Assembly (NCBI GenBank): GCA_964387965.1
Contig: CAYLXO010000004.1
Coordinates: forward strand, 1-44,364
DNA: 44,364 nt
DNA from: an uncultured Candidatus Saccharibacteria bacterium
Lineage (GTDB): Bacteria > Patescibacteriota > Minisyncoccia > Phycocordibacterales > UBA9973
Direction of reading: 5' to 3'
Positions within the stretch are counted from its first letter, which is position 1. Every line of letters starts with the position of its first letter. This document shows, piece after piece, positions 24,429 through 44,364 of this stretch. A program made the translations under genes and the position numbers. Below the pieces are notes generated by a model. The model saw nothing but the letters and a program-made list of their open reading frames with translations, did no database searches and was not told the DNA's origin.

Positions 24429-24443
24429 ATGAGAACTATTCTA

Positions 24444-25001
24444 TCACAAATGGGACTGTGATAAGGCTTGATTGATATCGCGTATCAACCGATGCTGTTC
24501 TTTGACATCAAGAAGTGTGTCGTCAGTAGTAAGCGTTTCGCGAGAGAGATACCCAAGTGCAATAAGAAGTCGGGCCACAGTAAGAAGTTCTATGCGCCTG
24601 TATTCTTCTTTTTCAGTATTTGGAAGTGAAAATAATTCAAAAAGTCTTGTAAGTGTTTTAAAGATTTCTTCGTTGGGTTCCTCTCCTGTCACGAGTCTTC
24701 GTACAAGTGAGAAAACTCGAGCAATTATTTTTTCTGATTCTATAGTACCGAGGACAAGTGTGAATGTTGAAATACTTGTCGCTGTTGTTACTCGCCACAC
24801 CTCTTTACCACGCACCAAATCGACATTCGCACGCGAAAAATCTGCAAGTGTAAAACGAAGCTTTGATGAAAGTTTACGAATGCCTTGGGCGTGCGCATAT
24901 ACAAGGCCAAGATCTCGTGTATACAAAATAAGAACCTTTGAGTCTTCCCCTTTTGGAATCGAACCTATGACAAATGCTTCGGTGTGATGAATGTGGTGCA
25001 T
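24444..25001 (-). CDS. recO: DNA repair protein RecO (short form, no zinc finger)
   Basis: The N-terminal OB pattern is TEAFVIGSIPKGEDSKVLILYTRDLGLVYAHAQGIRKLSSKLRFTLADFS..VDLVRGKEVWRVTTA, followed by a helical C-terminal domain. At 185 aa it is shorter than typical RecO. Confidence 0.6.
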   Translation of the reverse strand: MHHIHHTEAFVIGSIPKGEDSKVLILYTRDLGLVYAHAQGIRKLSSKLRFTLADFSRANVDLVRGKEVWRVTTATSISTFTLVLGTIESEKIIARVFSLVRRLVTGEEPNEEIFKTLTRLFELFSLPNTEKEEYRRIELLTVARLLIALGYLSRETLTTDDTLLDVKEQHRLIRDINQALSQSHL

Positions 25002-26504: not shown

Positions 26505-27090
26505 CTGCTTTTAGTTCGTTGATACGAGACATAAGGTCAATATCCATACGAATAGCTCGTTCAGCAATCGCACGTGCTGTCTCCATGCTGATATTAAGTG
26601 CATCACGATCAAATACAATATCTGCTTCTCGTGTAGAAACTCCAGTATTGTTTCCGTTAAACATATCAAATTCCTTACACGCATTTTTTATAATTTCGAA
26701 AAAATCACGAGCCATATCAGAAACTGCCAGTAAGTTTATATGTGTCCCTTCCAAATCCTGCAGAAGTTGCTTCCGCTCTTCAGTCTCAAATCCTGACGGC
26801 TTTTTTATTTTTATTTCCCCCTCGAGAGTGTCGTCGGCAAGTTCGAGCATGTTTTGCAATCCAGCAAAACTCATCCCATCTGTCATGGCTGGAACTCCAA
26901 GTTCTAAAATGTATCCTTCAAATTCAGCAGAAAGATACTCCCCGCTTGTCTCAAGCGAAAGAGAGAGGTCACGTCTAAAACCTTTAAGCGCCCCGACAAG
27001 AAGCTCTGCGCCTCCTTGCACCTTTGCAAGTTCTATTTCTAGTATTTCCTTGCCTTCAGCAAGTCTATCTCGTACTTCGCCTTCTATCAT
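26497..27090 (-). CDS. Acidic hypothetical protein (197 aa)
   Basis: The ATG start overlaps the HAD stop by 4 nt, and its own stop overlaps the next start by 8 nt, so it is translationally coupled. No motif was recognised. Confidence 0.55.
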   Translation of the reverse strand: MIEGEVRDRLAEGKEILEIELAKVQGGAELLVGALKGFRRDLSLSLETSGEYLSAEFEGYILELGVPAMTDGMSFAGLQNMLELADDTLEGEIKIKKPSGFETEERKQLLQDLEGTHINLLAVSDMARDFFEIIKNACKEFDMFNGNNTGVSTREADIVFDRDALNISMETARAIAERAIRMDIDLMSRINELKADE

Positions 27091-27716
27091 GCACTCATTG
27101 TACCAAAGAATCGGTATATTTCCGCCTCAAGTTCGGGCACTGTATCAACAACAGCAAACGGTTCAGCTTTTTCAAACTCTTCGCGGGTGTGAAGCCCCCA
27201 GGTGACACCTATAGAACGCACGCCACACTCATTCCCTTCTCTCATGTCGCCAAGTGTATCGGTAATGAATATTGTTTCGCTTGGCTGTAAACCATATTGT
27301 GTAAGTAATTGATTTATTTTTATTGTTTTTCTTGCATGAGTATCACTGCCGAGGATTTCCTCAAATCTATCTCGAATATTTTCTTCTTCGAGAGATTCAA
27401 TAATATGTCGCGAATGAGATGATGAAACTATAGCGAGCCTAAAATCTTTAGACAGATCAAGCACAAGCTTTCGTATGACATCGTGAGTAGTGAGTTTTTT
27501 GAGACCATCTTTGTACAACTCTTCCCAATCGGTACGAAGGACATATCCATCGTGTGTAACTGCATGATGTAGTCCATCGTAAAAATTCCCAGACGACATC
27601 TTTTTTAGATACTCGTCAGATAAATGCGGATTTGTGCTTCGCATAATACCAAGAACTAAATCCGTAGTATTAACGAGCACTCCATCAAAATCAAAAATTA
27701 CGAGTTTTTTAAACAT
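27087..27716 (-). CDS. HAD-superfamily phosphatase (phosphoglycolate phosphatase/PGMB-like subfamily)
   Basis: Motif I is VIFDFDGVLVNT, motif II is AIVSSS, and motif IV is FITDTLGDM. Its start overlaps the ileS stop by 1 nt. Confidence 0.85.
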   Translation of the reverse strand: MFKKLVIFDFDGVLVNTTDLVLGIMRSTNPHLSDEYLKKMSSGNFYDGLHHAVTHDGYVLRTDWEELYKDGLKKLTTHDVIRKLVLDLSKDFRLAIVSSSHSRHIIESLEEENIRDRFEEILGSDTHARKTIKINQLLTQYGLQPSETIFITDTLGDMREGNECGVRSIGVTWGLHTREEFEKAEPFAVVDTVPELEAEIYRFFGTMSA

Positions 27717-30700
27717 TATTTTGTGATTACAATTGTATCACCCTTATACACAATCTCTTTTGCAAGTACCGTCTTTTTGAGGTCAGCTTCGTTATCTGCC
27801 ACCAATGCTTTTACACGTTCAGGGAGTGTAAGAGATATGACATCACTCGGAGTAAGATTTTCTTTCTTGCGTGTATCTTGAATTTCTCGCACAAGTTCGC
27901 GGTAATCCCCTTCTTTTTTAAGCTCAGGTGTGATTTCAGTAGCAAGCACAAAATCTGTACTGAGTGCCGTATCAGCAACAAGCTCTTTAATGTTTAATTC
28001 ATCTTTTATAATTTCAGTATACGCAAGACTTAAGTCGTACGCTTTCACTCGTAATTCTTTAAGTGGCTGTCGAACAGCAATGTTAGCTTTTTGTCGTGCT
28101 TGCAATCCAAGAGTGACAATCGTACGCGCAGTGCGAGTATTTTCCAATACAAGTGCGTTCACTTCTCCTGCCTCAGGCCAATTTGCAAGGTGTACACTCT
28201 CGCTGTCGTTTTCGTGGCGCAATTTTTGCCATATTTCTTCCGCGATAAATGGTGCAAACGGTGCGATGATAAGCGCGGTTGTTTTTAGTACAAAGTAGAG
28301 TGTACCTTTTGCTTCATTATCACCGTCTTTGATTCGGTCTCGTGATCTGCGTACGTACCATGTCGAAAGGTCATCAACAAAGAGATCAAATGGACGTGTC
28401 GCTTCTGTCATATCGTATGCATCCATTCCCTTTGTAACATCGCGGATAGTTTCGTATAAGCGCGCGATGATCCATTCATCGAGTACATTACCACTACGAA
28501 GTTCATATTTTGTAGTCTCTGCATCCATATCACGATACAACTCGTAAAACGCTGTAACGTTAGACAATCGTCCGACAATTTTCGAAGCGATTTCTGCAAC
28601 TGTGCGCTCAGAGAAATTTGCATCTTCTCCTTTCATGAGCGGACTTGCCATAAGATACAATCGGAGTGGATCAACGCCGTATTTATCAAAAAGAATCCAT
28701 GGATCTGGAAAATTATTTTTTGATTTCGACATTTTTTGTCCGTCTTCTGCAAGTAGTGTTCCTGTTGTCACCACATTTTTAAACGGCGCGCCTCCAAAGA
28801 GCACTGTTGATACAGCATGAGTATAGTAGAACCAGGTGCGAGTCTGAGCGATATATTCGGCGACAAAGCCAGCTGGGAAATTGTTGCACTGCCAGTCTTT
28901 ACCGTCACAAATCTCTCCCGGAGCATATGCAAATGGATAATGATCTTGCGCAAACGGCATCGAGCCTGATTCAAACCAGCAGTCAATAACCTCGGGAATA
29001 CGCTGGTATTCTTCACCTTGCTCATCTACGAGCACAATCTCATCAATGTACGGACGGTGTAGATCTATTTCATAGTGAGCATTATGTGGAAATGGGACAA
29101 ATGGAAGTGGGCGAATTTCTGCATTTACAAAGTCAGAGTATTCATCGTTAATTTCAGAAAGATTTTCATATCGCAATCCGTTTGTTACAAAGTTTACAGC
29201 GCGAGCCACACCCATATGTGCCACGATAAGCACTTTCTTCCCTAAGTATTTTGACTCGATATCAAATAAGAATTCTCCAACGCGTTTTACTAGTTGTGAA
29301 AAATTTTCTCCATCTTTAAATTCATGAAACGGATCTGTCGCATATTTCAAATCGTAGTAATGACGGAATTCATCTTTTGTAACTCCATCAAAGCTTGAAT
29401 CAATCTCCCATTCACGAATTCGATCATCGTAGACAACATTGTCTATTGGAAACCCGATTGTGTCACAAACTATTTGTGTTGTTTCTTTTACACGAAGTAT
29501 TGGCGATGCGATAACTACATCAACTTTTTCTGTAAAGCGCTGTGCACTTTCAAGCACTTGCGCTTTACCTTGTTCTGTAAGATGTGCACTATGATGCAAT
29601 TCCTGATTGTGCGTCGAGCCCAAATTATTTTCTGCTTGCCCGTGGCGCATAATAAAGTACGTATTGCCTGACTTTTTTGTCTTTGCTTTCAAATCTGCAA
29701 CCGATTGCACAAAAAGATACTTACCATTTTTTGATTTCCAAAACGGAAGTGGGCTTGCCCAATAACGATTGCGTGAAATATTCCAGTCAGGAGCATTCTC
29801 GACTGTGTGTTCGAATCTTCCTTCCTTAAGGTGCGCCGGAATCCAATTCATTGCCTGAGCTTTATCAAGCAATTCTTTTTTTACTTTTTGAATATTGATA
29901 AACCAACTTGGGAGCGCATAGTAAAAGAGTGGCGTCTCGCAACGATAACAGTGTGGGTATGAGTGAGTAATCTTTTCTTTTTTAAAGAGTGCTCCACTTG
30001 CCTGCAAGTACTTCAAGATTTCAATATCTGCCTTCATGTGGCCGTCTTTTTCAGTAGACTTTGGCTTGATAAGCATACCTGCAAAATCTGTAACCTCAGG
30101 TGCAAACTTTCCTTCTGGAGTGACGTGCACAATAAATGGGATATTTTCTTTTTGAGCAAGTACCGCGTCATCTTCACCGAACGCAGGTGCTTCATGAGCA
30201 ATACCAGTACCATCAGTAGTCGTCACAAAATCTCCATGAACAACTGTCCATGATTTTGGGTTTCTAAGCAACGCCTCCCCTTTTGTGTAGTACGGAAACG
30301 GAGGTGTATATTTTTTGCCAAGCAATTTTTCTCCTTTAAATTCTTCGACGATTTCGTACTGCTTGTCTTTAAAAACAGCTTCTGCTCTTTCTTTGGCTAC
30401 GACATAGAACTTGTCCTCGATTTTTGCTTTTACATATGTCGCCTCTTTATGAACAGCAAGTACAATATCCCCTGGAAGCGACCATGGGGTTGTCGTCCAC
30501 GCGATAAGAACAGTATTAGGATCTTCAACGAGTGGCATATTCACGTACACAGAAATATCCGAAATATCCTTGTACGAATTATCCATCGCGATTTCAGATT
30601 TTGCGATTGGTGTCTCACAACGAGGACAGTATGCAAGCACACGGACTCCTTCATACAAAAGCCCTTTGTCATTCATTTGGTTGAGAGCCCACCACACACT

Positions 30701-33411: not shown

Positions 33412-33834
33412 CTATTTCCTTCCAGTCGATCCGAAGCTTCCTTCGCCTCGTGCTGACTCACTTAGACTATCAGTTTCCACAAGATCTGCAATCTCTACAG
33501 GATAGATGACTATCTGCGCAATCTTGTCTCCTTCTTCTACGGTATACGGTTTGTCAGACAAATTTACGATATGTGTGTTGTACTCTCCGCGAAATCCAGC
33601 ATCAAATACACCACCCATGGTATGGAGTCCCGCATTTGAAGTACTTGATTTGTCTTTGATGATAGCCGCGTATCCAATAGGAAATTCCATTGCAAATCCA
33701 TGCATAAAACGATGATGCTCCCCTGGCATAATCGTCACCGTTTCCATTGAATACACATCCATCCCTACATCTCCTGGATGATGGTATTTGGGAAGCTTTG
33801 CCTCAGGTTTTAATTTTTTTACTTTAATTTGCAT
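33412..33834 (-). CDS. dut: dUTP pyrophosphatase (trimeric dUTPase)
   Basis: It contains GDVGMDVYS, GVFDAGFRGE, a KIAQIV strand, and C-terminal motif V RGEGSFGSTG. Confidence 0.9.
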   Translation of the reverse strand: MQIKVKKLKPEAKLPKYHHPGDVGMDVYSMETVTIMPGEHHRFMHGFAMEFPIGYAAIIKDKSSTSNAGLHTMGGVFDAGFRGEYNTHIVNLSDKPYTVEEGDKIAQIVIYPVEIADLVETDSLSESARGEGSFGSTGRK

Positions 33835-34327
33835 TATCGTTTCCTTTTATAAAATGATTGATAGTCAAAACAAAACTCGGTACAAACATACTAGGGTTTT
33901 CTTGAAAAAGTTTCAAGATTTCTTCTTTTGCAAACCAACGTATTTCATCTACTTCATCTTCTCTTCTTGTAAATGTATACTCGCTATTTATTTCCGAGCT
34001 ATACCACTGACAAAAATATTCATGACTGGTTGAGCGTCGCATTTTTTGATCCTCTTTCGGAATAAAATTTATAAGCCCAATTTCCTCTGCAGCTTCTTTT
34101 ATTATATTTGATTCATACGTCTCTCCCTCTTCTACCGTACCAGCAACTGCGGGGCCCCAAAGCCCTGGTTCTCTTTTTTTTACTTTCGCACGCTTTGCAA
34201 GTAAGACTTCCCCTTTTTCATTTGTCACCCACAAAGCAGACACTCGACAAATTTCGCCGTTTTTTCTTTCATCGATGTCTTTGTATTCGATGAGTTCATC
34301 TTGTTCGTCTACAATGGGGATTCTCAT
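33824..34327 (-). CDS. NUDIX hydrolase (IDI/YfcD-like subfamily, lacks the IDI catalytic Cys)
   Basis: The NUDIX box is GTVEEGETYESNIIKEAAEEIGL. It overlaps the dut start by 11 nt. Confidence 0.8.
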   Translation of the reverse strand: MRIPIVDEQDELIEYKDIDERKNGEICRVSALWVTNEKGEVLLAKRAKVKKREPGLWGPAVAGTVEEGETYESNIIKEAAEEIGLINFIPKEDQKMRRSTSHEYFCQWYSSEINSEYTFTRREDEVDEIRWFAKEEILKLFQENPSMFVPSFVLTINHFIKGNDNAN

Positions 34328-34335
34328 AATAAAAT

Positions 34336-34827
34336 TTAATTCAAAAAATGCTTTATCTCTTCATCAAACCTATGTACGAATTGGTCGATATCATTTAAAA
34401 TCAATTCTGGAAGTTCATTTTTTGAAACCCATTTAATTTCTGCGACTTCTTCCTTGTCGGGAATCAATTCGTAGTCGTTTGGAATAACAAGCTTGTAAAA
34501 TTGCCCCACACACTTGCCTTGAGCAAAATCTCGATTCATTTTTATAAGTGCCTCCGGCTTAAAACCCTTAATACCAAGCTCCTCTTCCATTTCTCTCACT
34601 ATTGCCTCGTCGTATGATTCTGGATGACTCACCGCGCCAGTAACAGCGTATGACCAAAGTCCTGGAAACGTTTTCTTTGTATGGGCACGCCTAACAAGCA
34701 ATACTTCACCTCTATCATTTTCAACCCAAAGCAAAACAATTCTACATCTGTCGTTTGAATTTACTTCGTGCCTTGGTTTTATACCAAGCACTTCATCATT
34801 CTCATCTACAAGATAGAGATGCTCCAT
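34336..34827 (-). CDS. NUDIX hydrolase, tandem paralog of the previous gene
   Basis: The NUDIX box is GAVSHPESYDEAIVREMEEELGI. The N-terminal pattern (VDENDEVLG...R..LLWV.N..GEVLL.RRA..K...PGLW) matches its neighbour. Confidence 0.8.
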   Translation of the reverse strand: MEHLYLVDENDEVLGIKPRHEVNSNDRCRIVLLWVENDRGEVLLVRRAHTKKTFPGLWSYAVTGAVSHPESYDEAIVREMEEELGIKGFKPEALIKMNRDFAQGKCVGQFYKLVIPNDYELIPDKEEVAEIKWVSKNELPELILNDIDQFVHRFDEEIKHFLN

Positions 34828-34830
34828 AGA

Positions 34831-35520
34831 TTACTTCAAAATCTTTTTGACATCAGCAAAAACTTTTTCGTGGATAACTTCGCGTGGTAGTATTCCGTCT
34901 TTACTTGCGCAATCTATTTTCTTCCATGCTTTTTCGCGCTTTGAAAGCCACAACGCACTCATTTCAGAATTTTTCAAAAAATTAAAATCGTTTTCATGTA
35001 CATCTTTCTTTTTTCCAAGATAGGCACGCGCGTGGTGCATATTTCGACTCTTGATGAGAGTCTTAATTATTGGAAGTGGAAGATATAGGTAGAAAACCAT
35101 ATCTGGTTTTGGAATCTTGAATACATCGTATTCCATCTTAGAAAGCCACTTCATAAATTCGGCACGCTTTTTTGAATCTTTTATTTTTCCGCCTTGGTGA
35201 ATCTGGTTTGCCGAAACATATCTATTGGCGAGCACAATGTGTCCTTCCTTTATCCATTTTTCAATCTTTGCCTTCGATTCAAACCTGTCAGCCGCATACA
35301 CAACTGATGCAATCTTTGGGTGAATATTTACCCAATTGTAATATTGTTCCGAAAGACAGTGTCCCAAAAACGCACCAAAAAAGTTCCCGTAATATTCAGG
35401 GAAATCTACCATCTTTACAGAATAGCCCTCTTTCTTTAATCGCTTAGCAAGAAGCTCGCTCTGAGTCGCCTTTCCTGAACCATCTGTGCCGTCTATTACT
35501 ATAAGTTTCCCCTTTGCCAT
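34831..35520 (-). CDS. tmk: Thymidylate (dTMP) kinase family protein
   Basis: The P-loop is LIVIDGTDGSGKATQ. Also seen are AADRFE and the DRY-like ANRYVSANQIHQG. It is 229 aa long. Confidence 0.75.
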   Translation of the reverse strand: MAKGKLIVIDGTDGSGKATQSELLAKRLKKEGYSVKMVDFPEYYGNFFGAFLGHCLSEQYYNWVNIHPKIASVVYAADRFESKAKIEKWIKEGHIVLANRYVSANQIHQGGKIKDSKKRAEFMKWLSKMEYDVFKIPKPDMVFYLYLPLPIIKTLIKSRNMHHARAYLGKKKDVHENDFNFLKNSEMSALWLSKREKAWKKIDCASKDGILPREVIHEKVFADVKKILK

Positions 35521-35552
35521 AGGGTTACTGTACCAAGAAAATTTGGGTATTA

Positions 35553-36140
35553 CTAATCTATCTCTTTCCAGCCTAGCTGTTTTAACAGAGACTTACAGAG
35601 CTCAACTGGCATTCCCATTAAAGTATCTGTTCCGCCTTTCAAACTTTTTACGGCAGGAGGAAACTCTGGATCCATATAAGTAAATCCACCTGCATACTGC
35701 CCGTATGTTCCTTTGGCGATATATCGCTCTATAAACGCGTCGTTAAACGGACCCATAACAAGCTCTCCAACATCAAGTCCTTCGCGTGTTTCTTTTGTTT
35801 CTATATTTGTAACAGTTATTGCTGTAGCAAAACCAAATGGAGTCTTCCCGTCATACGCTTTTAGAAACTTTCGTTCTTCGTCTGCAGAAAGTGGTTTTTC
35901 AAAGAGATCATCCCCTCGAAACAAAATTGTATCTGCTGTTATAAGAAAAGCGGGTTCGCTAATGCGAGCAAGGAGTGCATCACGTTTTGCATTGGCAAGA
36001 AGTTGAACAAGTTTCAAATGATCTTTTTCGCGAATCGCCTTCTCATCAACATCTGGCGTAATAACTGTACCGATTTTAATATCGGCCTGCTCGAGTAATA
36101 CTTTCCTTTTTGCAGATGCTGAACCTAATATGACTTTCAT
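35553..36140 (-). CDS. maf: Maf-family nucleoside triphosphate pyrophosphatase
   Basis: It begins MKVILGSASAKRKVLLEQA and contains ITADTILFRGDDLFEKP and AGGFTYMD. It is 195 aa long. Confidence 0.85.
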   Translation of the reverse strand: MKVILGSASAKRKVLLEQADIKIGTVITPDVDEKAIREKDHLKLVQLLANAKRDALLARISEPAFLITADTILFRGDDLFEKPLSADEERKFLKAYDGKTPFGFATAITVTNIETKETREGLDVGELVMGPFNDAFIERYIAKGTYGQYAGGFTYMDPEFPPAVKSLKGGTDTLMGMPVELCKSLLKQLGWKEID

Positions 36141-36142
36141 GT

Positions 36143-36766
36143 CTATATGATAACCTCTTTATCCTTACCTACAAACACACATTTTCCACTGTCGCAAAAT
36201 AGTGCTTGTCCATCTCTTAAAATCTTCACGGGATATTTCGAATGGTCAACTTTTTCTTTTATTTTTTCTCTCATTTCATCCGTATAATGAGCAAAAAACA
36301 TATACGGCACAAAATGCAGCCCGGCAAAATCTGTAAGCCCATAAGTCTCCTTATTTTTATCTTTCCAGAATGTAGTTTCAATATTTGCACCCATGATATA
36401 TGAACCTGCACTTGTTCCTACATACATTCCGCCTCTTTGAAAAAATTCATCTAAAAAAATTTTAAAATTTGATTTTCTAGCTTCTAAAAGCAAGTAACAC
36501 GTATCTCCGCCAACAACATGAATAACATTTTTGTCTTGAAAAAAACTCCTGAGTTCATCAATTGTTTTATCTTTAATATCAAATTCGTAGAAATCTATAC
36601 CGAGTTTTTTCATCTCGTTTTTATGATTTTCGATATACGATTTATTTTCGCGCAAATTACCTGCCGTCGTTACATATCCAAGCCTAATTTCTGAAAAAGG
36701 AATCCCTAGAAGCTTGTATCCTTCTTCATATAAAAACCCAGAATTTGACGCGAGGACTAGTTTCAT
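36143..36766 (-). CDS. Peptidase S51 family (dipeptidase E/cyanophycinase-like)
   Basis: It contains VVGGDTCYLL and the GTSAGS nucleophile motif, with a downstream His (FFAHY). Confidence 0.75.
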   Translation of the reverse strand: MKLVLASNSGFLYEEGYKLLGIPFSEIRLGYVTTAGNLRENKSYIENHKNEMKKLGIDFYEFDIKDKTIDELRSFFQDKNVIHVVGGDTCYLLLEARKSNFKIFLDEFFQRGGMYVGTSAGSYIMGANIETTFWKDKNKETYGLTDFAGLHFVPYMFFAHYTDEMREKIKEKVDHSKYPVKILRDGQALFCDSGKCVFVGKDKEVII

Positions 36767-37191
36767 TTTTGTTCACAGAATAATTTTAGCCCACTGTTTG
36801 GGTCAATCTTTTTTTCGAGTTTTTCTGGAAGCCAATCAATGACTGCTTCCCCTGTTGCAGATATTATGAGTTTATTTACATGTCCACCAAAAGTTTCGTG
36901 ATTGTCGTCTCCAAACACCCCATGCGCATGCACCCACGGCGCTCCGTTTATCCAAGCAACATTACCGGTGATTGTTATGACTTCAATATTTCGAGCTGAA
37001 TGTGTTTTTGAAGAATACTTTTGTGTATCGATATCATAGTAAGCAAGCTCAACATCTGTGCACCCACCAATCATAGAAAAATGGAAAGATTTCCCTGCTT
37101 TTTCGGCAAATTCTGTAAGTAATGAAATTGGCTCATCCCCTTTTTCAAATTGAAGGACAGTTTTTAAATTGTTTTCAAATGCGATTTTCAT
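36763..37191 (-). CDS. PPC/DUF296 domain protein
   Basis: It contains SMIGGCTDVELAYYD...ITGNVAW..G.PWVHAHGVFGD...FGGHV and is 142 aa long. There is a 4-nt overlap with the next gene. Confidence 0.7.
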   Translation of the reverse strand: MKIAFENNLKTVLQFEKGDEPISLLTEFAEKAGKSFHFSMIGGCTDVELAYYDIDTQKYSSKTHSARNIEVITITGNVAWINGAPWVHAHGVFGDDNHETFGGHVNKLIISATGEAVIDWLPEKLEKKIDPNSGLKLFCEQK

Positions 37192-37193
37192 AT

Positions 37194-37781
37194 TTAGTCT
37201 GGTCGGCCTATAGATTTCTCTATTGCTTCCATGTGAGCTGGATTATTTCTACGTAAATATTCTAGCACTTTTCCACGCACTCGTGCGCTAGTAAGTCCAG
37301 CTGTTTTCGCATATTCCAAAATATCCTTAATTGCAGGCTCAATTTCGTGTTCAGAATTTACCATTTTTTCAATCTCGCAAATATCATAGCCAAAATCCAT
37401 TCTATCTATGTCGATAGTAAAACCATTTTTCTTGTATTTCCTACGAGTTGTTTCAATTCGACAAAATTTCTCTATGCCAAGACCTTTAAGATTGTCTACG
37501 AGGCTTTTTGTGTTATCAAAACCAAGTTCGATGATTATCTCGCTTTCATTTTCTATCTCTCTATATTGATCTGCCATTCTATCTGGACCGATATTAAGTG
37601 GCATTTTCAATTCCCATCTATCCCCTCGCATGCGAAGCCAAGTATCTTTTGTGGTAAGTGACCAATTTGAATAATCGAAATACTCATCAACAAAAACTTT
37701 TTCGCCAACAAATTCTGCATCTTGAATAAGCAGTTTTTCTTGTTCGGGGGATATGAAAAATTTTTTCTCGACTTCGATCAT
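37194..37781 (-). CDS. CYTH-domain protein, thiamine-triphosphatase (ThTPase)-like
   Basis: It has the EXEXK motif IEVEKKF at the N-terminus, WLRMRGDRWELKMP, and IDIDRMDFGYDICEIE. The layout is colinear with my recollection of mammalian ThTPase. Confidence 0.75.
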   Translation of the reverse strand: MIEVEKKFFISPEQEKLLIQDAEFVGEKVFVDEYFDYSNWSLTTKDTWLRMRGDRWELKMPLNIGPDRMADQYREIENESEIIIELGFDNTKSLVDNLKGLGIEKFCRIETTRRKYKKNGFTIDIDRMDFGYDICEIEKMVNSEHEIEPAIKDILEYAKTAGLTSARVRGKVLEYLRRNNPAHMEAIEKSIGRPD

Positions 37782-37830
37782 GCAGATTTTATATTATCGT
37801 TTGGATAATTGAATGCAGTTCAAGGCGCAA

Positions 37831-37884
37831 ACTCAATTTTGTGACTAAAACGTATTAATAATACGTTGCAGGAACAAATTGAGT
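37831..37884 (-). terminator. Composite hairpin downstream of glyA (inner 9-bp palindrome AACGTATTA-T-TAATACGTT, outer ~11-bp arms)
   Basis: The inverted repeats were read directly. There is only a weak U-run (UUUUAG), so this may be a terminator or an intercistronic processing structure. Confidence 0.4.
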
Positions 37885-37907
37885 GAAGCAACAAAGAAAT
37901 GCGTCAA

Positions 37908-39161
37908 TTATACAAACGACTCAGGAATTGGGAACTGCATGGCAAGAGCCTTCACTTCCTCCTTTATCACTTTCTTTTTCCCTTCATCGTCTTTATTGCG
38001 AAGGGTTTCAATCAAAAGTTCTGCAACGCGTGCGCAATCTGCCTCTTTAAACCCACGAGTAGTGATTGCTGGTGTTCCAAGACGAATTCCGGATGGATCA
38101 AGTGGCTTGCGTGTATCCCCCGCGATTGAGTTCATGTTAAGAGTAATCCCCACTTCATCAAGTACAGTCTGCGCTTCTTTTCCAGTAACACCGATTGAGC
38201 CAAATACATCTGCAAGAATAAGATGGTTGTCTGTTCCCCCTCCAATCATGCGAATTTTTTCACGGTGGAATACTGCTTCCATTGCTTTTGCGTTTTTCAA
38301 AACTTGCTGTGCATATTCTTGATACGCTGGCGTAAGTGCTTCGCCGAATGCTACTGCCTTTGCCGCGATTGTGTGCATGTGTGGTCCACCTTGAATTCCT
38401 GGGAAAATTGATTTGTCGATTTTTTTTGCAATTTCTTCGTTCTCACGTGTAAGAATGATTCCTCCGCGTGGTCCGCGAAGTGTTTTGTGTGTTGTAGATG
38501 TGATGATATCGAATCCATCATCAAATGGGTTGCGAAGAGCTTTACCTGCAATGAGTCCTGCAATGTGCGCCATATCTGCCATAGTGATTGCACCGACTTC
38601 TTTTGCTACTTCAACAAACTTTTTGTAATCAAGTGTACGTGGGTATGCAGAAAATCCAGCAATGATTAGTTTTGGTTTGTGTTCAAGTGCCACCTGTCGA
38701 AGATGATCGTAATCAATCTCGCCAGTTTCTGGATCTTTCATTTTGTATGTAACAAATTTGTAGATCTTTGCTGGAAGTGTCATCGGGTGCCCGTGTGTAA
38801 GGTGTCCTCCATGAGAGAGGTCCATACCAAGTACAGTGTCCCCCGGTTCAAGTAGCGCTGCATATACTGCCAAGTTGGCTGGAGCACCTGAGTGAGGTTG
38901 AACGTTAGCAAATTTACAATTAAAAAGTTTACAAATGCGTTCAATTGCAAGCCGCTCTACTACATCTGTGTATTCTTGTCCGCCATAGTAGCGACGACCA
39001 GGATATCCTTCTGAATATTTATTTGTAAGAATTGAACCGTTTGCAAGAAGCACGTTCTTTGATACGTAGTTCTCACTCGGTATGAGCTCAAGTCCTTCTG
39101 CTTGTCTTTTAGCTTCGCCCGCAATTGCATCAAACACTTCCGTTTCCTTATATGAGCTCAT
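37908..39161 (-). CDS. glyA: Serine hydroxymethyltransferase
   Basis: It contains LIPSENYVS, GYPGRRYYGG and the PLP-lysine block TSTTHKTLRGPRGG. Confidence 0.97.
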   Translation of the reverse strand: MSSYKETEVFDAIAGEAKRQAEGLELIPSENYVSKNVLLANGSILTNKYSEGYPGRRYYGGQEYTDVVERLAIERICKLFNCKFANVQPHSGAPANLAVYAALLEPGDTVLGMDLSHGGHLTHGHPMTLPAKIYKFVTYKMKDPETGEIDYDHLRQVALEHKPKLIIAGFSAYPRTLDYKKFVEVAKEVGAITMADMAHIAGLIAGKALRNPFDDGFDIITSTTHKTLRGPRGGIILTRENEEIAKKIDKSIFPGIQGGPHMHTIAAKAVAFGEALTPAYQEYAQQVLKNAKAMEAVFHREKIRMIGGGTDNHLILADVFGSIGVTGKEAQTVLDEVGITLNMNSIAGDTRKPLDPSGIRLGTPAITTRGFKEADCARVAELLIETLRNKDDEGKKKVIKEEVKALAMQFPIPESFV

Positions 39162-39215
39162 GTATATATAGATTAAACACTAATATGCGAATTCTATCAT
39201 GAAAATTGTAATTAG

Positions 39216-39247
39216 AAAAAAATACAGGGCAACGTGATGTTACCCTG
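39216..39247 (-). terminator. Intrinsic terminator/attenuator 55 nt upstream of the glyA ATG
   Basis: The minus strand reads CAGGGUAAC-auca-CGUUGCCCUG (one mismatch) followed by UAUUUUUUU. Confidence 0.6.
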
Positions 39248-39433
39248 CATAAATATATAGAAACAATATGAAATTTAATTTGTGATTAGGTTGCCTTTAC
39301 ATGACTCCCTACAAAAAAATGGCCTATGGTACCGCACTTATTCTCAATATTATAGAGAATATACGGACTTTTTAAGCAACATTTTGACTTGGTTTAAGTC
39401 TGCTCCTAAAATCAATATTTGTCAAGAGGCAAC

Positions 39434-39472
39434 CTAAAAGGTATTCTACGTGCTACATAGAATACCTTTTAG
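39434..39472 (-). terminator. 15-bp perfect hairpin 11 nt after the helicase stop (no U-run)
   Basis: It reads CTAAAAGGTATTCTA-cgtgctaca-TAGAATACCTTTTAG. Confidence 0.45.
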
Positions 39473-39483
39473 AGAGTTCGCTG

Positions 39484-40989
39484 TTACCCTGGTATGAATG
39501 TCAGAGCCGTACCCTTCTTGTCGGCTCGGCCTGTTCGTCCGATTCGGTGCACATATGTTTCGTAGTCGTTTGGAATATCGTAGTTGATAACGTGTGTTAC
39601 ATTCGGGATATCAAGTCCGCGAGCTGCAACATCAGTTGCAATCAAAATAGTGATTTTATTTTCCTTAAACGCTGCGAGCGTGCGAACACGTTCTCGATTG
39701 TGTTTGTCGCCGTGAATACCAGCTACTTTAAACCCACGATCTTTCAATTCTTTTTCAAGAGTATCTACACTGCGTTTTGTTTCGCGGAAAATAAGTACCT
39801 TGTCTGAACCGTCTTTGATAAGAATATCGTGAAGAAGTTCGAGCTTGTCTGCCGGTCGTGCACGCACAACATCCTGATCAATATTTTTACTTGTCTCCCC
39901 TTTCACAACAGAAACAAAGAGAGGGTCTTTCAAATATTTGTCAGTGAGTTTGCGAATATCTGGTGAAAGAGTCGCAGAGAAAAAGAGTGTCTGTCTATCA
40001 GCACGACATTTATTCAATATAAATTCCATATCATCACGGAATCCCATATCAAGCATGCGGTCTGCTTCATCGAGCACTACTGTACCGTAATCAGAAAGGT
40101 CGAGTGCTTTTTGTTTTATAAGATCTACAACTCGTCCTGGCGTACCAATGACAAAATTGATTCCACGGCGAATTTCACGAATCTGTTTGAAAATTGGCAT
40201 TCCTCCTACTGTAAGAACTGAAAAGAGTGACATCATTTGTGAAAGCGCGCGGAATTCAACATCGATTTGCTGTGCAAGCTCACGTGTCGGTGCAAGTATG
40301 AGAACTTTCTGTTTTTTATCCTGCGCTACGCGATTGATAAGTGGCAAAATAAATGCACCTGTTTTTCCTGTACCTGTGTTTGCAAGTCCAAAGAAATCTT
40401 TCCCCGCTATTATGTGCTCAATTGACTGATCCTGAATTGGAGTTGGGTTTATAAATCCTTTTTTTGCAATATTACGCTTCAAAGAATCGAGAAATGGAAA
40501 GTCTGAAAATGTGTGTACTGGTACATATGGTTTTTCTTCAACTTGTACTGCCTTTTTTACAAACTTTGAGTAGTCAACGGCTGTGCCACCATAACGACCA
40601 CGCTTGTTGAAATTTCGTCCTGGCGCACGATTGCGCTCAAAACTCTTTGAACGACGACCTCCACCGCCACCCTTAAACCCGCCTCGTGTTGATGATTCAA
40701 AACGAGTCGAGGCGTGCCCACCGCGTCCGCCACCAAATGAAGGACGGTCAGAATGACCTCCTTTGTATGAACTACGTGAAGCGCCTTCGCCACTGTTGTG
40801 TCCACGAGATGAATCACCACTTGGGCGTGGTGCTGGACCTGTGTATCGAAAACCACCCCCAGAACGTGTTACTGGAGAAGACTTACCATTAAATTTTCGC
40901 CCGCTTCCACCTCCGTGGCTTCGAGCAAATTTACCACCTGATTGTGGTCGTGCAGAATTGCCTTTATGCATATAACTATTGTTTGTCAT
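39484..40989 (-). CDS. DEAD-box ATP-dependent RNA helicase with an N-terminal Arg/Gly/Ser-rich disordered region
   Basis: Seen are the Q-motif region FINPTPIQ, motif I ANTGTGKT, DEAD (VLDEADRML), SAT, and HRIGRTGRA. The ORF track start at 41007 is TTG. The ATG at 40989 is preceded by AAGG and is preferred. Confidence 0.9.
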   Translation of the reverse strand: MTNNSYMHKGNSARPQSGGKFARSHGGGSGRKFNGKSSPVTRSGGGFRYTGPAPRPSGDSSRGHNSGEGASRSSYKGGHSDRPSFGGGRGGHASTRFESSTRGGFKGGGGGRRSKSFERNRAPGRNFNKRGRYGGTAVDYSKFVKKAVQVEEKPYVPVHTFSDFPFLDSLKRNIAKKGFINPTPIQDQSIEHIIAGKDFFGLANTGTGKTGAFILPLINRVAQDKKQKVLILAPTRELAQQIDVEFRALSQMMSLFSVLTVGGMPIFKQIREIRRGINFVIGTPGRVVDLIKQKALDLSDYGTVVLDEADRMLDMGFRDDMEFILNKCRADRQTLFFSATLSPDIRKLTDKYLKDPLFVSVVKGETSKNIDQDVVRARPADKLELLHDILIKDGSDKVLIFRETKRSVDTLEKELKDRGFKVAGIHGDKHNRERVRTLAAFKENKITILIATDVAARGLDIPNVTHVINYDIPNDYETYVHRIGRTGRADKKGTALTFIPG

Positions 40990-41149
40990 GGACCTTAGCT
41001 CTGACAAACAATGCTAAATTCCATAATCGGCATTCTCTTAATTAAAAATGAGGCCGATCGCCTCTAGTGAGAATACTAAGGAAAGAATAACACTATTATC
41101 AAAAAATGTCAATAAGTGCAGACTTCTACAACTTCTGTATACTAAAAAT

Positions 41150-42091
41150 ATGAAATCTCGCCACGTAGACGAACAATATTTAGACCTCCTCCAAAAACTC
41201 CTCGATGAAGGAAACGAAAAAACCGACCGTACAGGTACGGGTACAAAATCATTTCTTGGCTACCAGATGCGCTTCAATCTCGAAGACGGCTTCCCTCTTC
41301 TCACGACTAAGAAAGTCCCTATCAAAGCTATCATTCACGAACTCCTTTGGTTTATGCGTGGAGATACAAATTTAAAATATCTCGCCGACAACAACGTGCA
41401 TATTTGGGATGAGTGGCCTTACAAGGCATATCTAAAGAAAAATAATTTACCTATCCCAGAAATAAATGGAGAGGAATGGAAAACTGGAATGGCAGAATTT
41501 GTTGAGAAAATAAAATCTGACGAAACGTTTGCAAAAGAAAACGGAAATCTCGGTCCCATCTATGGATACCAGTGGCGAAGTTGGCCAACGCCAAATGGCG
41601 GGCACATCGACCAGCTCGCACAAGTAATTGAGACTATCAAAAAAAATCCTGATGATAGACGCATGATTGTTTCTGCATGGAACGTTGGTCAAATCGAGGA
41701 AATGAAAATTGCTGGCCTTCCACCATGCCATTGTTTTTTCCAATTCTATGTAGCAGATGGCAAACTTTCTTGTCAGCTCTATCAGCGTAGTTGCGACACA
41801 TTCCTTGGTGTTCCCTTCAACATTGCGTCATACTCAATTTTTACAATGATCATGGCGCAAATTTGCGGACTAAAACCAGGAGAATTTGTCTGGACTGGTG
41901 GTGATGTACATTTGTACAAAAATCATATCGAACAAGCAAAGCTTCAACTCACTCGCCGTTCTGATATTCGCCCACTTCCAAAAATGAAAATCAACCCAGC
42001 AAAAAACAAAATCGAGGATTTTACAATTGAAGATTTTGAACTTGTAGATTACAACCCTCATGAAGCTATTAAAGCTCCTATAGCGGTCTAA
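41150..42091 (+). CDS. thyA: Thymidylate synthase (ThyA, long form with the small-domain insertion)
   Basis: It contains DRTGTGT, IHELLWF, the catalytic Cys in [28 protein letters not shown], and C-terminal KAPIAV. The ORF track start at 41048 is an upstream run-on. The ATG at 41150 follows TATACT by 6 nt. Confidence 0.95.
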
Positions 42092-42095
42092 AAAT

Positions 42096-42521
42096 ATGAA
42101 AGCAGGTGCAGACTACATAGGAATAGGTGCTGGAGCTCTCATCTTTAATGATGAAGGCAAGATACTTCTTATGAAGCGCGGCGCTAGCGCAAAAAATGAA
42201 ATCGGCCACTGGACTATTCCAGGAGGTTCTATCGAATTCGGTGAGACAATGAAAGATGCAGTCATACGCGAGGCGCGTGAAGAAATCGGATGCGAAATAG
42301 AAATTGATGGTCAGCTTCCTGCCATCGACCACATACTCCCAAGTGAAAACCAACACTGGGTAACAACCATTTTTACCTGCCGTATAAAAAGTGGAACACC
42401 AAAAATTCTTGAAACAGAAAAATGCGAGGAGATGAACTGGTTCTCTCTTGATAATCTCCCATCCCCTCTTTCTGCTTCTATCAAAGATACAGTAGAAAAT
42501 TTTTATACTATAGCTGGCTAA
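42096..42521 (+). CDS. NUDIX hydrolase (MutT-like), 141 aa
   Basis: It has a perfect NUDIX box GSIEFGETMKDAVIREAREEIGC. It starts 4 nt after the thyA stop. Confidence 0.85.
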   Translation: MKAGADYIGIGAGALIFNDEGKILLMKRGASAKNEIGHWTIPGGSIEFGETMKDAVIREAREEIGCEIEIDGQLPAIDHILPSENQHWVTTIFTCRIKSGTPKILETEKCEEMNWFSLDNLPSPLSASIKDTVENFYTIAG

Positions 42522-42526
42522 CAATC

Positions 42527-44248
42527 ATGGAAACCCACAACTGCCAAAACTGTAAATCTGATTTTGTCATCGACGAAGATGATCTTTTGTTCTACCAAAA
42601 AATGCAGGTACCGAAGCCGACCTTTTGTCCGTTTTGTAGACACATTAGACGCTCGGCACTTATTAGCGAAAGTGCTCTATATAAAGGTACGTGCGCAAGG
42701 TGCAAAAAGTCTCTTATAACAATGCATCATCAAGATGATGGATATACAATCTACTGTCCTAAATGTAAACACGGAGAAAATTGGGATGGCCGTGAATATG
42801 GAAGAGATTATGATTTTTCGAAAAACTTTTTCGAACAATTTTTCAAAATGTTTAAAGAAACTCCTGTTATATCAATGGAACAGACGGAAACAAACGGTGA
42901 GGGTTGTGAGTACTCAAACTATATTTCTGGAAGTAAAAATTCGTATTTGTCATACGGAATACATGGATCAGAAAATATTTTTTATTCAAAATATGTATTT
43001 CGGGGCACAAAAAACTGTGTGGATTGTCTTTTAATAAAGAAAAATGATCGTTGCTACGAAAATGTCAGATCGTATGCGAATTATGATTGTAAATTTCTGC
43101 TCGAAAGTCACGAGTGTGTTTCGTCTGCATTTCTTTATGATTGCATAAACTGCGCGAACTGCTTTATGTCTAGCAACTTGCGGAACAAAAGCTATGTTTT
43201 TCGTAACAAGCAACTTACAAAGGAAGAATACACAAAAGAATTGGCCTCTCTTAATTTAAACACGTACCATGAACAAACTACAGCCAAGAAAGAATTCTCT
43301 AATTTGATGCTCAGCTCTATACATAAATATGCGGACATAAAAAACTCCTCCGGATGTACCGGCGATTTTATCCGCCACTCAAATAATTGTATAAAGTGTT
43401 TCGGTGTTCTTGATTCAGAAAATTTGAGAAACTCCTACATTATTCTAAATACTGCATCAGAAAATTCGCACGACATTATGTTTACCGGACAGGTTTCAGA
43501 TTGTTACGAAGTTGTTTATGGAGGAAAAGCCATGACAAATATAAAATTTACAAAAAGTTGTGGTGGTGGAAGTCAGAATTTGGAATATTCGGCAAACTGT
43601 AGAAACTGTAAAGATTGTTTTGGATGTTTTGGCCTTATGAGAAATCAATACTGTATCTTAAACAAACAGTACACAAAAGAAGAATACGATGAACTCGTTC
43701 CTAAAATAAAAAAACATATGGACGAAATGCCTTATGTAGATAAACTCGGGAGAATCTACAAATATGGAGAATACTTCCCTACCGAACTATCACCATTTGC
43801 ATATAACGAAACATTGGCTTTTGAAGAAGCTCCTCTTACAAAAGAAAAAGCGCTTGCAGAAGGTTACAGATGGAGAGATATGGATGCAAAGTCATATCCT
43901 GCAACAATATTGAGTAAAGATCTTCCTGACTCAATCGTAGATGTACAGGATTCTATATTAAACGAAGTAATAGCATGCCCAAACAATGGAGACCCCAAGA
44001 CTCGTTGTACTTCTGCGTTTAAAATAATCCCAGATGAATTAGCATTCTATAGACTCATGAAATTACCCATACCACGCTACTGTCCAAACTGTAGATACTA
44101 TGACCGGCTAAAGTGGAAGAATCCATTTAAGTTCTGGCATAGGAAGTGTATGAACCAAAATTGCTCTAACGAATTCGAAACAAGCTACGCACCTGAGCGA
44201 CCTGAGATTGTATTTTGTGAGAGTTGCTATCAGAAGGAAGTCCTGTAG
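42527..44248 (+). CDS. Cys-rich protein (573 aa; 35 Cys by my count): zinc-ribbon modules at both ends flanking CxxC-containing internal repeats; function unknown
   Basis: The N-terminus is CQNC..FVIDEDDLLFYQKMQVPKPTFCPFCRHIRR followed by CARC..CPKC. The C-terminus is FKIIPDELAFYRLMKLPIPRYCPNCRYYDRL..CMNQNC..FCESC. Internal units include NCVDC, CINCANCF, NCIKCFG and NCRNCKDCFGCFG, each followed by ..LRN..Y....NKQ(Y/L)TKEEY. Confidence 0.75.
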   Translation: METHNCQNCKSDFVIDEDDLLFYQKMQVPKPTFCPFCRHIRRSALISESALYKGTCARCKKSLITMHHQDDGYTIYCPKCKHGENWDGREYGRDYDFSKNFFEQFFKMFKETPVISMEQTETNGEGCEYSNYISGSKNSYLSYGIHGSENIFYSKYVFRGTKNCVDCLLIKKNDRCYENVRSYANYDCKFLLESHECVSSAFLYDCINCANCFMSSNLRNKSYVFRNKQLTKEEYTKELASLNLNTYHEQTTAKKEFSNLMLSSIHKYADIKNSSGCTGDFIRHSNNCIKCFGVLDSENLRNSYIILNTASENSHDIMFTGQVSDCYEVVYGGKAMTNIKFTKSCGGGSQNLEYSANCRNCKDCFGCFGLMRNQYCILNKQYTKEEYDELVPKIKKHMDEMPYVDKLGRIYKYGEYFPTELSPFAYNETLAFEEAPLTKEKALAEGYRWRDMDAKSYPATILSKDLPDSIVDVQDSILNEVIACPNNGDPKTRCTSAFKIIPDELAFYRLMKLPIPRYCPNCRYYDRLKWKNPFKFWHRKCMNQNCSNEFETSYAPERPEIVFCESCYQKEVL

Positions 44249-44257
44249 ACTTTAGGT

Positions 44258-44364
44258 ATGGAAACTCGAAATTGCCAAAACTGTAAAAGTGACTTCGTTA
44301 TCGACCAAGACGATTTTGGTTTTTATGCAAAGATGAAAGTGCCTCTACCTACGTTTTGTCCAGA
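44258..44364 (+). CDS. Start of a second, paralogous Cys-rich protein (truncated by the window end)
   Basis: My translation is METRNCQNCKSDFVIDQDDFGFYAKMKVPLPTFCP. It is identical to the N-terminus of the preceding protein at 28 of 35 residues. Confidence 0.7.
   Translation, partial: METRNCQNCKSDFVIDQDDFGFYAKMKVPLPTFCP

Follow-up and report, generated by a model that had tools for sequence, protein, structure and literature searches.

Two adjacent genes encoding cysteine-rich proteins lie at the 3' end of the window, i.e. of the whole 44,364-nucleotide (nt) stretch analysed here (contig CAYLXO010000004.1 of assembly GCA_964387965.1, an uncultured Candidatus Saccharibacteria bacterium; called contig C4 below), and they raise the question of what these proteins are and with which partner they could work. 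The two genes, named CRPa (first gene of the pair) and CRPb (second gene), are intact, ancient and ordinary members of a very large family of ultra-small bacteria (Patescibacteria) that is unnamed in databases. The feature is real; domain databases do not describe the family, and literature searches found no account of it. The genes are as follows (aa, amino acids; ORF, open reading frame):

42527 to 44248, + strand: gene CRPa, 573 aa with 35 Cys, cytoplasmic (ORF translation; homologues all named 'hypothetical').
44258 to 44364, + strand: start of gene CRPb (codons 1-35); the remainder, on contig C8, completes a protein of 573 aa with 35 Cys.

A sequence-only reading of the locus had reported a 573-aa protein with 35 Cys, nearly all of them in CxxC pairs, followed directly by a second copy with 28 of 35 identical N-terminal residues. 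The length and Cys count were exact on re-translation, and many Cys are paired, although 'nearly all' was somewhat overstated (23/35 fall in at least one CxxC). CRPb starts at 44258, 9 nt past the stop codon of CRPa, and the two N-termini are identical at 28 of 35 residues, the genes being tandem paralogues. The final 55 nt of contig C4 (window 44310 to 44364) are also the opening 55 nt of contig C8, the sole such link for that end of C4, and the ORF of the joined contigs is uninterrupted over 573 aa, with 35 Cys and all family motifs present; the downstream copy is thus no pseudogene fragment. The larger paralogue array suspected earlier reduces to two tandem genes plus four dispersed paralogues, contig C8 then carrying folA, a MazG-like gene and a dCMP deaminase gene. 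CRPa and CRPb share 43% aa identity, their third-codon-position identity is 26-57% per 35-codon block and their synonymous sites are near saturation. The third-position divergence and the 43% aa identity together indicate an old duplication kept by purifying selection. Neither a recent duplication nor gene conversion at the 5' ends fits the 49% third-position identity of the first 35 codons and the 43% overall aa identity, and both were rejected.

Six full-length paralogues (564-592 aa, 32-35 Cys) are encoded in this 700-kb, 92%-complete genome, of which they make up about 1.5%; they are 39-43% identical to CRPa, and four are dispersed outside the tandem pair. A word-index search returned at least 7,982 significant matches among 8,000 candidates, all named 'hypothetical' and none with a Pfam domain, and a profile run against 1.84 billion 50%-identity representatives returned 5,664 clusters at E ≤ 1e-3 and 2,413 at E ≤ 1e-30. 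Named records belong to Nomurabacteria, Paceibacterota, Minisyncoccia, Jorgensenbacteria, Brennerbacteria, Liptonbacteria and Giovannonibacteria. Of 401 evenly sampled Patescibacteria genomes, 27 from at least 12 GTDB families have a family match (about 20 full-length), and most sampled genomes of the organism's own order and class have no family match. The six paralogues occupy six separate clades in a tree of 197 copies, each clade with members from many genomes, which means that the paralogy is ancient; the CRPa clade comprises 68 sequences from 60 loci (support 99). A phage or mobile origin was ruled out, since 2.9 million viral contigs yielded a single family fragment, at a contig end, and PADLOC-DB gave no match (0 families for CRPa).

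Some relatives are reduced or split. A distant genome encodes a 237-aa single-half solenoid without fingers (L098, G218 C1:791955-792668), the start of which overlaps the stop of a 713-aa gene resembling those of type IV coupling proteins (T4CP); a 320-aa protein (L099, G353 C48) is a two-half core without fingers, with near-perfect 12-residue CxxC repeats. At two other loci (L100 in G142 C61; G395 C54:14867-16254), family genes beside T4CP-like genes are split into finger and solenoid ORFs or interrupted by stops, and may be decaying copies.

The architecture of both proteins, shown or predicted with confidence, consists of four treble-clef-type fingers, two duplicated narrow beta-solenoid halves with a conserved Cys cluster closing each, about six 4-Cys sites in all and a conserved acidic alpha/beta domain; in CRPa the parts are:

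42533 to 42655, + strand: N-terminal zf_Tbcl-type treble-clef finger with C6, C9, C34 and C37 (F-x-I...FY...VP-x-P-x2-CPxCR).
42692 to 42766, + strand: second finger, exact CxxC-x17-CxxC with C56, C59, C77 and C80, of zf_Tbcl_2/TIGR04272 type (read from the sequence).
42902 to 43192, + strand: solenoid half 1, with Cys in a single three-residue phase and 12-residue coils (autocorrelation and AlphaFold model).
43178 to 43231, + strand: end motif of half 1, LRNKSYVFRNKQLTKEEY, preceded by the conserved C197, C206, C209 and C212.
43220 to 43315, + strand: helical hairpin joining the halves (model), the most variable part of the family.
43319 to 43657, + strand: solenoid half 2, a duplicate of half 1, closing in C358-x2-C-x2-C-x2-C367...C376.
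43676 to 43966, + strand: conserved helix and alpha/beta domain, acidic (YGEFFP-x-E-x-SPF-x-YNET...GY-x-W).
43976 to 44107, + strand: C-terminal zf_Tbcl-like finger with C484, C494...C519 and C522, a duplicate of the N-terminal finger.
44147 to 44227, + strand: C-terminal Cx4C-x17-CxxC finger with C541, C546, C564 and C567, of zf_Tbcl_2 type.

The recurrence of the N-terminal module near the C-terminus, proposed in the sequence-only reading, was borne out by BLASTP (residues 9-42 against 494-527: 16/34 identical, E 2e-10). The proposed internal repeats stand as a duplication: half 1 (about residues 127-244) and half 2 (about 275-393) are identical at 35 of 123 positions (BLASTP, E 6e-8), with N-C-x2-C...L-R/M-N...NKQ(L/Y)TKEEY as their shared closing motif (residues 206-235 in half 1, 358-387 in half 2). 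Their unit is not the 20-25 residues that had been suggested, but 3 and 12 residues, the core Cys columns showing a strict period-3 and period-12 autocorrelation. A helix sits between the second finger and half 1.

The four Cys of the N-terminal zf_Tbcl finger are 99% conserved across the family, those of the second finger 67-87% (these Cys are lost in paralogues C1 and C2), those of the C-terminal zf_Tbcl-like finger 92-99% and those of the C-terminal Cx4C-x17-CxxC finger 98-100%. Over the 197 sequences, about 24 Cys in six 4-Cys groups are 67-100% conserved and the remaining core Cys 30-60%; in CRPa itself, ladder positions of the core are often Ser, Asn or Asp. The helix and alpha/beta domain (net charge -3 to -8) has at least 80% conservation in 39 of 108 columns and a predicted local distance difference test score (pLDDT) of 95-99. 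By column, conservation is 0.64-0.73 in the fingers and alpha/beta domain and 0.38-0.49 in the solenoids and variable parts. CRPa has neither a signal peptide nor a transmembrane segment, its solenoid halves are near neutral, which rules out a DNA mimic, and whole proteins are near neutral to acidic (isoelectric point, pI, 5.4-7.6). The proteins have no recognisable catalytic domain and, on the reading favoured below, would be non-enzymatic scaffolds stabilised by zinc.

The sequence-only reading could not assign CRPa to a family, and searches of Pfam, NCBIfam and the PDB place it in no well-characterised one. Pfam and NCBIfam detect the fingers alone, and the roughly 400 intervening residues are covered by no model. 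On residues 3-43 of CRPa, zf_Tbcl (PF13451) scores 16.4 bits with hmmscan and 21.8 in the genome scan, below its cut-off of 24, with the motif and the four Cys present; paralogues C12 (25.6 bits) and C2 (25.1 bits) exceed this cut-off. zf_Tbcl_2 (PF23477) is not reported for CRPa at E up to 1, despite the exact CxxC-x17-CxxC at C56-C80; it scores 30.2 bits on the C-terminal module of C12, over its 27-bit cut-off, and at E ≤ 0.1 it recognises 14 of 50 relatives. In paralogues, the part recognised is the second N-terminal or the last C-terminal module. Both finger families (zf_Tbcl and zf_Tbcl_2/TIGR04272) are themselves without an assigned function and described as 'probable treble clef'. Other Patescibacteria encode stand-alone two-finger proteins of about 100 aa, the layout of which equals residues 1-85 of CRPa; in CRPa, by contrast, the finger pair is doubled and brackets two solenoid halves and an alpha/beta domain. 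Small proteins of Methanosarcina mazei with CxxC-x17-CxxC bind zinc, as measured by inductively coupled plasma mass spectrometry (PMC12704099).

A multi-zinc architecture with a beta-helix-like core, also suspected from the sequence, agrees with the structure predictions. A first AlphaFold model, from a 50-sequence alignment, had a weak core (pLDDT 60-72); a second, from 141 diverse sequences, reached a pLDDT of 92.7 and a predicted template modelling (TM) score of 0.92, with short strands every 6 or 12 residues (in half 1, residues 180-183, 189-192, 201-204 and 213-216). Foldseek against the PDB returned nothing significant (best E 1.8e-3, TM score 0.08-0.2, root-mean-square deviation 12-22 A); among the 50 matches listed, these weak matches to beta-solenoids are almost all left-handed beta-helix proteins. 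In BFVD, the matches are generic solenoids and local zinc-ribbon domains (probability 0.97-1.0). A sequence and profile search of the PDB gave no match to CRPa, and homology to solved structures was dropped, both this search and Foldseek being without a significant match. CRPa resembles left-handed beta-helix proteins such as LpxD, GlmU and gamma-carbonic anhydrase in its predicted coiled beta structure with short regular coils; unlike the acyltransferases of that fold, it lacks catalytic residues and has no Pfam hexapeptide (Hexapep) match at E up to 1, so that it is not a hexapeptide transferase. The Tenebrio antifreeze protein is a 12-residue Cys-lined beta-helix. Its coil resembles the 12-residue coil of CRPa with inward Cys; in contrast to that protein, which is absent among the matches listed, CRPa is cytoplasmic, and disulfide ladders are therefore unlikely.

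As regards a partner, the recurrent and specific neighbour of the family is a T4CP-like (VirD4/TraD/TrwB-like, HerA-related) ATPase, found at 16 of 80 related loci; in gene maps, 12 family genes lie within 500 bp of a T4CP-like gene on the same strand. In the organism's own genome, paralogue C1 lies between two soluble T4CP-like ATPases of 496 and 768 aa, both without a membrane segment (locus L008, G000 C1:23349-30449: 496-aa 'type A' ATPase at 23349-24839, Cys-rich paralogue, 768-aa 'type B' ATPase at 26659-28965, secreted lamin-tail-domain protein). The 768-aa ATPase contains a strong zf_Tbcl_2 finger (57-62 bits, CxxC-x17-CxxC), along with a disordered tail of about 290 aa that is rich in Lys, Glu and Pro. 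This finger is kept in long ATPases of other lineages, and PF23477 and PF13451 are confined in the own genome to the six paralogues and the 768-aa ATPase. The only PADLOC-DB matches of the two ATPases are remote ones to mad8 and HerA. A membrane-anchored 'type C' T4CP-like gene was not found in the own genome at E up to 1e-40.

T4CP-like genes are present in 398 of the 401 Patescibacteria genomes. A previous study counted 5,713 VirD4-type genes in Patescibacteria, of which only 148 lay close to virB4, and did not rule out exaptation (PMC12102498); the ATPases flanking paralogue C1 belong to that set of orphan homologues. Whereas that paper gives neither subtypes nor partners, a 'type A' subtype is tied here to family-holding genomes. 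Indeed, (i) the best non-own-family matches to the 496-aa ATPase (E 1e-142 to 1e-165) come, with one exception, from family-holding genomes, (ii) in at least 12 of the 21 holder genomes of the 401-genome sample, the best match to the 496-aa ATPase is encoded no more than 8 kb from a family gene, and (iii) in a tree of 68 ATPase cores, 17 'type A' rows are split from 50 other rows (SH-aLRT, Shimodaira-Hasegawa-like approximate likelihood ratio test, 100), all 17 coming from family-holding genomes or from the sister genome G284.

The reading favoured here, which we put forward tentatively and at somewhat less than an even chance, is that CRPa and CRPb would serve as a zinc-bound adaptor or scaffold of a soluble T4CP-like ATPase, as gene order and co-occurrence suggest. 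The reduced relatives described above agree with this partnership. The conserved fingers at the ends and the alpha/beta domain would dock the protein onto a soluble hexameric VirD4/TraD-like ATPase, and the solenoids, whose surfaces vary from paralogue to paralogue, would pick out or retain different cargo or partners; this split between constant docking and variable specificity is drawn from the column conservation given above. The six paralogues would be interchangeable adaptor or client-recognition subunits of the motor, or possibly its dedicated substrates, and CRPa and CRPb would be two distal members serving the ATPases encoded on contig C1. T4CPs with adaptors are known from the F plasmid (TraD-TraM) and from Legionella, where DotL works with DotM, the zinc-binding DotN, IcmS/W and LvgA. 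As in those systems, a VirD4/TraD-like ATPase stands beside non-enzymatic small or mid-sized partners, one class of which is Cys-rich and zinc-binding, and multiple adaptors would widen the cargo range; the present ATPases differ in being soluble and not near virB4, and the family has no sequence or fold likeness to those adaptors. It is possible, if doubtful, that the Cys-rich proteins, the 'type A' ATPases and finger-bearing 'type B' ATPases make up a cytoplasmic machine of Parcubacteria-type bacteria that has not been described so far, in which a ring motor with exchangeable zinc-finger and solenoid adaptor subunits would remodel or move protein or nucleic-acid cargo.

Several points weigh against the adaptor reading. 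The counts of ATPase and family co-occurrence ignore shared ancestry, and 140 of 191 full-length copies, CRPa and CRPb among them, have no ATPase gene within 10 kb. The sister genome G284 encodes both ATPases and no family gene, which means that the ATPases do not need the family. The roles of adaptor and of substrate are inseparable on the present evidence, and the join of C4 to C8 depends on the 55-nt assembly overlap.

The first alternative, unlikely but deserving attention, is nucleic-acid handling: the four fingers would bind DNA or RNA and present or process it for the ATPases, in the manner of a relaxosome accessory or of DNA uptake, or the proteins would have a part in deoxynucleotide or DNA metabolism. 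The FtsK/HerA superfamily of DNA pumps includes the T4CPs, both ATPases match TraD, TrwB and CedD models, and five of the six paralogues have a basic C-terminal finger pair (+2 to +5). The overall pI argues the other way, the surface being neither that of a DNA mimic nor strongly basic, and no known DNA-binding domain was detected. The surroundings of the window pair also invite this alternative, CRPa and CRPb lying in an island of deoxythymidine triphosphate metabolism (dut, tmk, glyA, thyA, folA and the dCMP deaminase gene). The window part of this dense thymidylate and nucleotide-hygiene island around thyA (33412 to 42521) comprises:

33412 to 33834: dUTPase-like gene.
33824 to 34827: two NUDIX genes.
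34831 to 35520: thymidylate kinase-like gene (tmk).
35553 to 36140: Maf-like gene (maf).
37908 to 39161: glyA-like gene.
41048 to 42091, + strand: thyA (PF00303, 5e-120), 4-nt gap to the next gene.
42096 to 42521, + strand: NUDIX hydrolase (PF00293, 6e-22), 5-nt gap to CRPa.

Only thyA and the last NUDIX gene were checked against Pfam, the other names coming from reading the sequence. In the listed thyA ORF, about 41 residues (41048 to 41170) precede the Pfam domain, and an internal Met is the likelier start codon. Between glyA and thyA, a DEAD-box helicase (39484 to 41007, - strand) is extended at its N-terminus by about 150 low-complexity residues rich in Arg, Gly and Ser (RGG-like), which is unusual among bacterial helicases.

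The local order is thyA-NUDIX-CRPa-CRPb-folA, with folA (DHFR_1, 2.7e-55) 140 nt beyond CRPb (contig C8:1-2331, locus L009). The dihydrofolate reductase that appeared to be missing behind thyA thus exists, displaced by the two inserted Cys-rich genes. With only 4, 5 and 9 nt between them, the genes from thyA to CRPb probably form one operon; scans for promoters and terminators from thyA to folA gave counts not above those of shuffled sequence, so that the support for an operon comes from gene spacing. The position behind thyA-NUDIX was correctly described in the sequence-only reading, but no meaning of it is supported: among the 80 related loci, thyA occurs at one, folA at none and the dCMP deaminase gene at none, which rules out a functional tie to thymidylate synthesis as a conserved context and counts against the nucleic-acid alternative. 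We infer that the position of CRPa and CRPb inside the thyA...folA cluster is incidental.

A second neighbourhood speaks for nucleic-acid handling, family genes lying directly upstream of ribonucleotide reductase (RNR) at about 10 of the 80 loci (L023, L025, L034, L046, L057, L062, L066, L070 and L086). These loci show the order ABC-F, family gene(s), RNR, small membrane proteins, thioredoxin-like protein and further family genes; they share a long syntenic block and so probably count as one lineage, which weakens the argument and leaves it as a lead only. The RNR gene of the own genome (C7:32945-35218) lies 250 nt from a contig end.

Somewhat less probable still is a role in proteostasis, in which the family and the soluble ATPases would form a protein-remodelling module alongside Hsp70, the Cys-rich proteins being client-holding scaffolds like the zinc-finger domain of DnaJ. 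Three loci (L012, L022 and L082) indeed show the order dnaK - ATPase - [family gene] - ATPase - dnaJ, and two sister genomes, G284 (L090, C1:54000-70000) and G256 (L091, C6:9000-25000), show dnaK - long ATPase - short ATPase - dnaJ uninterrupted by a family gene. However, in a 50-genome sample of the phylum, dnaK is mostly far from the ATPase genes (40 kb away in the own genome), so that a general linkage of dnaK and ATPase was ruled out and the layout is clade-specific. Furthermore, neither CRPa nor 50 relatives match the DnaJ zinc finger (PF00684; CXXCXGXG).

It is improbable that the proteins are a metal store or buffer, or an iron-sulfur (Fe-S) or redox protein, in which the 32-35 Cys would sequester zinc or iron or carry clusters inside the solenoid. 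The strict three-residue phase of the Cys fits an inward-facing ladder, CxxCxxCxxC runs close both halves, and the finger-less L099 has clean 12-residue CxxC repeats. On the other side, it is the roughly 24 Cys of the six groups that are conserved and not those of the core ladder, the Cys runs of CRPa are CxxCxxC(xxC) with a middle Cys only 39% conserved, CRPa has no Fer4 or radical-SAM Pfam match and no CxxCxxCxxxCP spacing, and bulk storage hardly explains six ancient diverged paralogues. For the Fe-S scaffold that the sequence-only reading had considered, no positive evidence emerged: the end modules are of treble-clef zinc-finger types, and most core Cys are those conserved at 30-60%.

Least probable of all, and very unlikely, is that the paralogues are effectors which the coupling-protein-like ATPases would recruit for export into a host cell via a type IV secretion system (T4SS), since, although the family is diversified, multi-copy and adjoins T4CP homologues, and Patescibacteria are often epibionts with T4SS genes (PMC12102498), both ATPases are without a membrane segment, the 92%-complete genome yielded no CagE/TrbE/VirB-type VirB4 (PF03135; AAA_10 matches sub-threshold only), tightly zinc-folded proteins are poor translocation substrates, and the paralogues are ancient and slowly evolving, unlike typical effectors.

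In summary, what is new here is the contig join with folA, the typing of the four finger modules, the 3/12 periodicity, the restriction of the ATPase subtype and the ATPase-only sister genome, together with an architecture in which known element types (treble-clef fingers and beta-solenoid) are newly combined. The family matters in that it is large, under purifying selection and unnamed in databases, and has an architecture, predicted with high confidence, without a solved counterpart. Its tie to one soluble T4CP-like subtype is a testable handle on why nearly all Patescibacteria hold coupling-protein genes outside secretion systems. If true, the machine reading would provide some of the thousands of orphan coupling-protein genes of Patescibacteria with their first function, and would bring with it a new protein fold.

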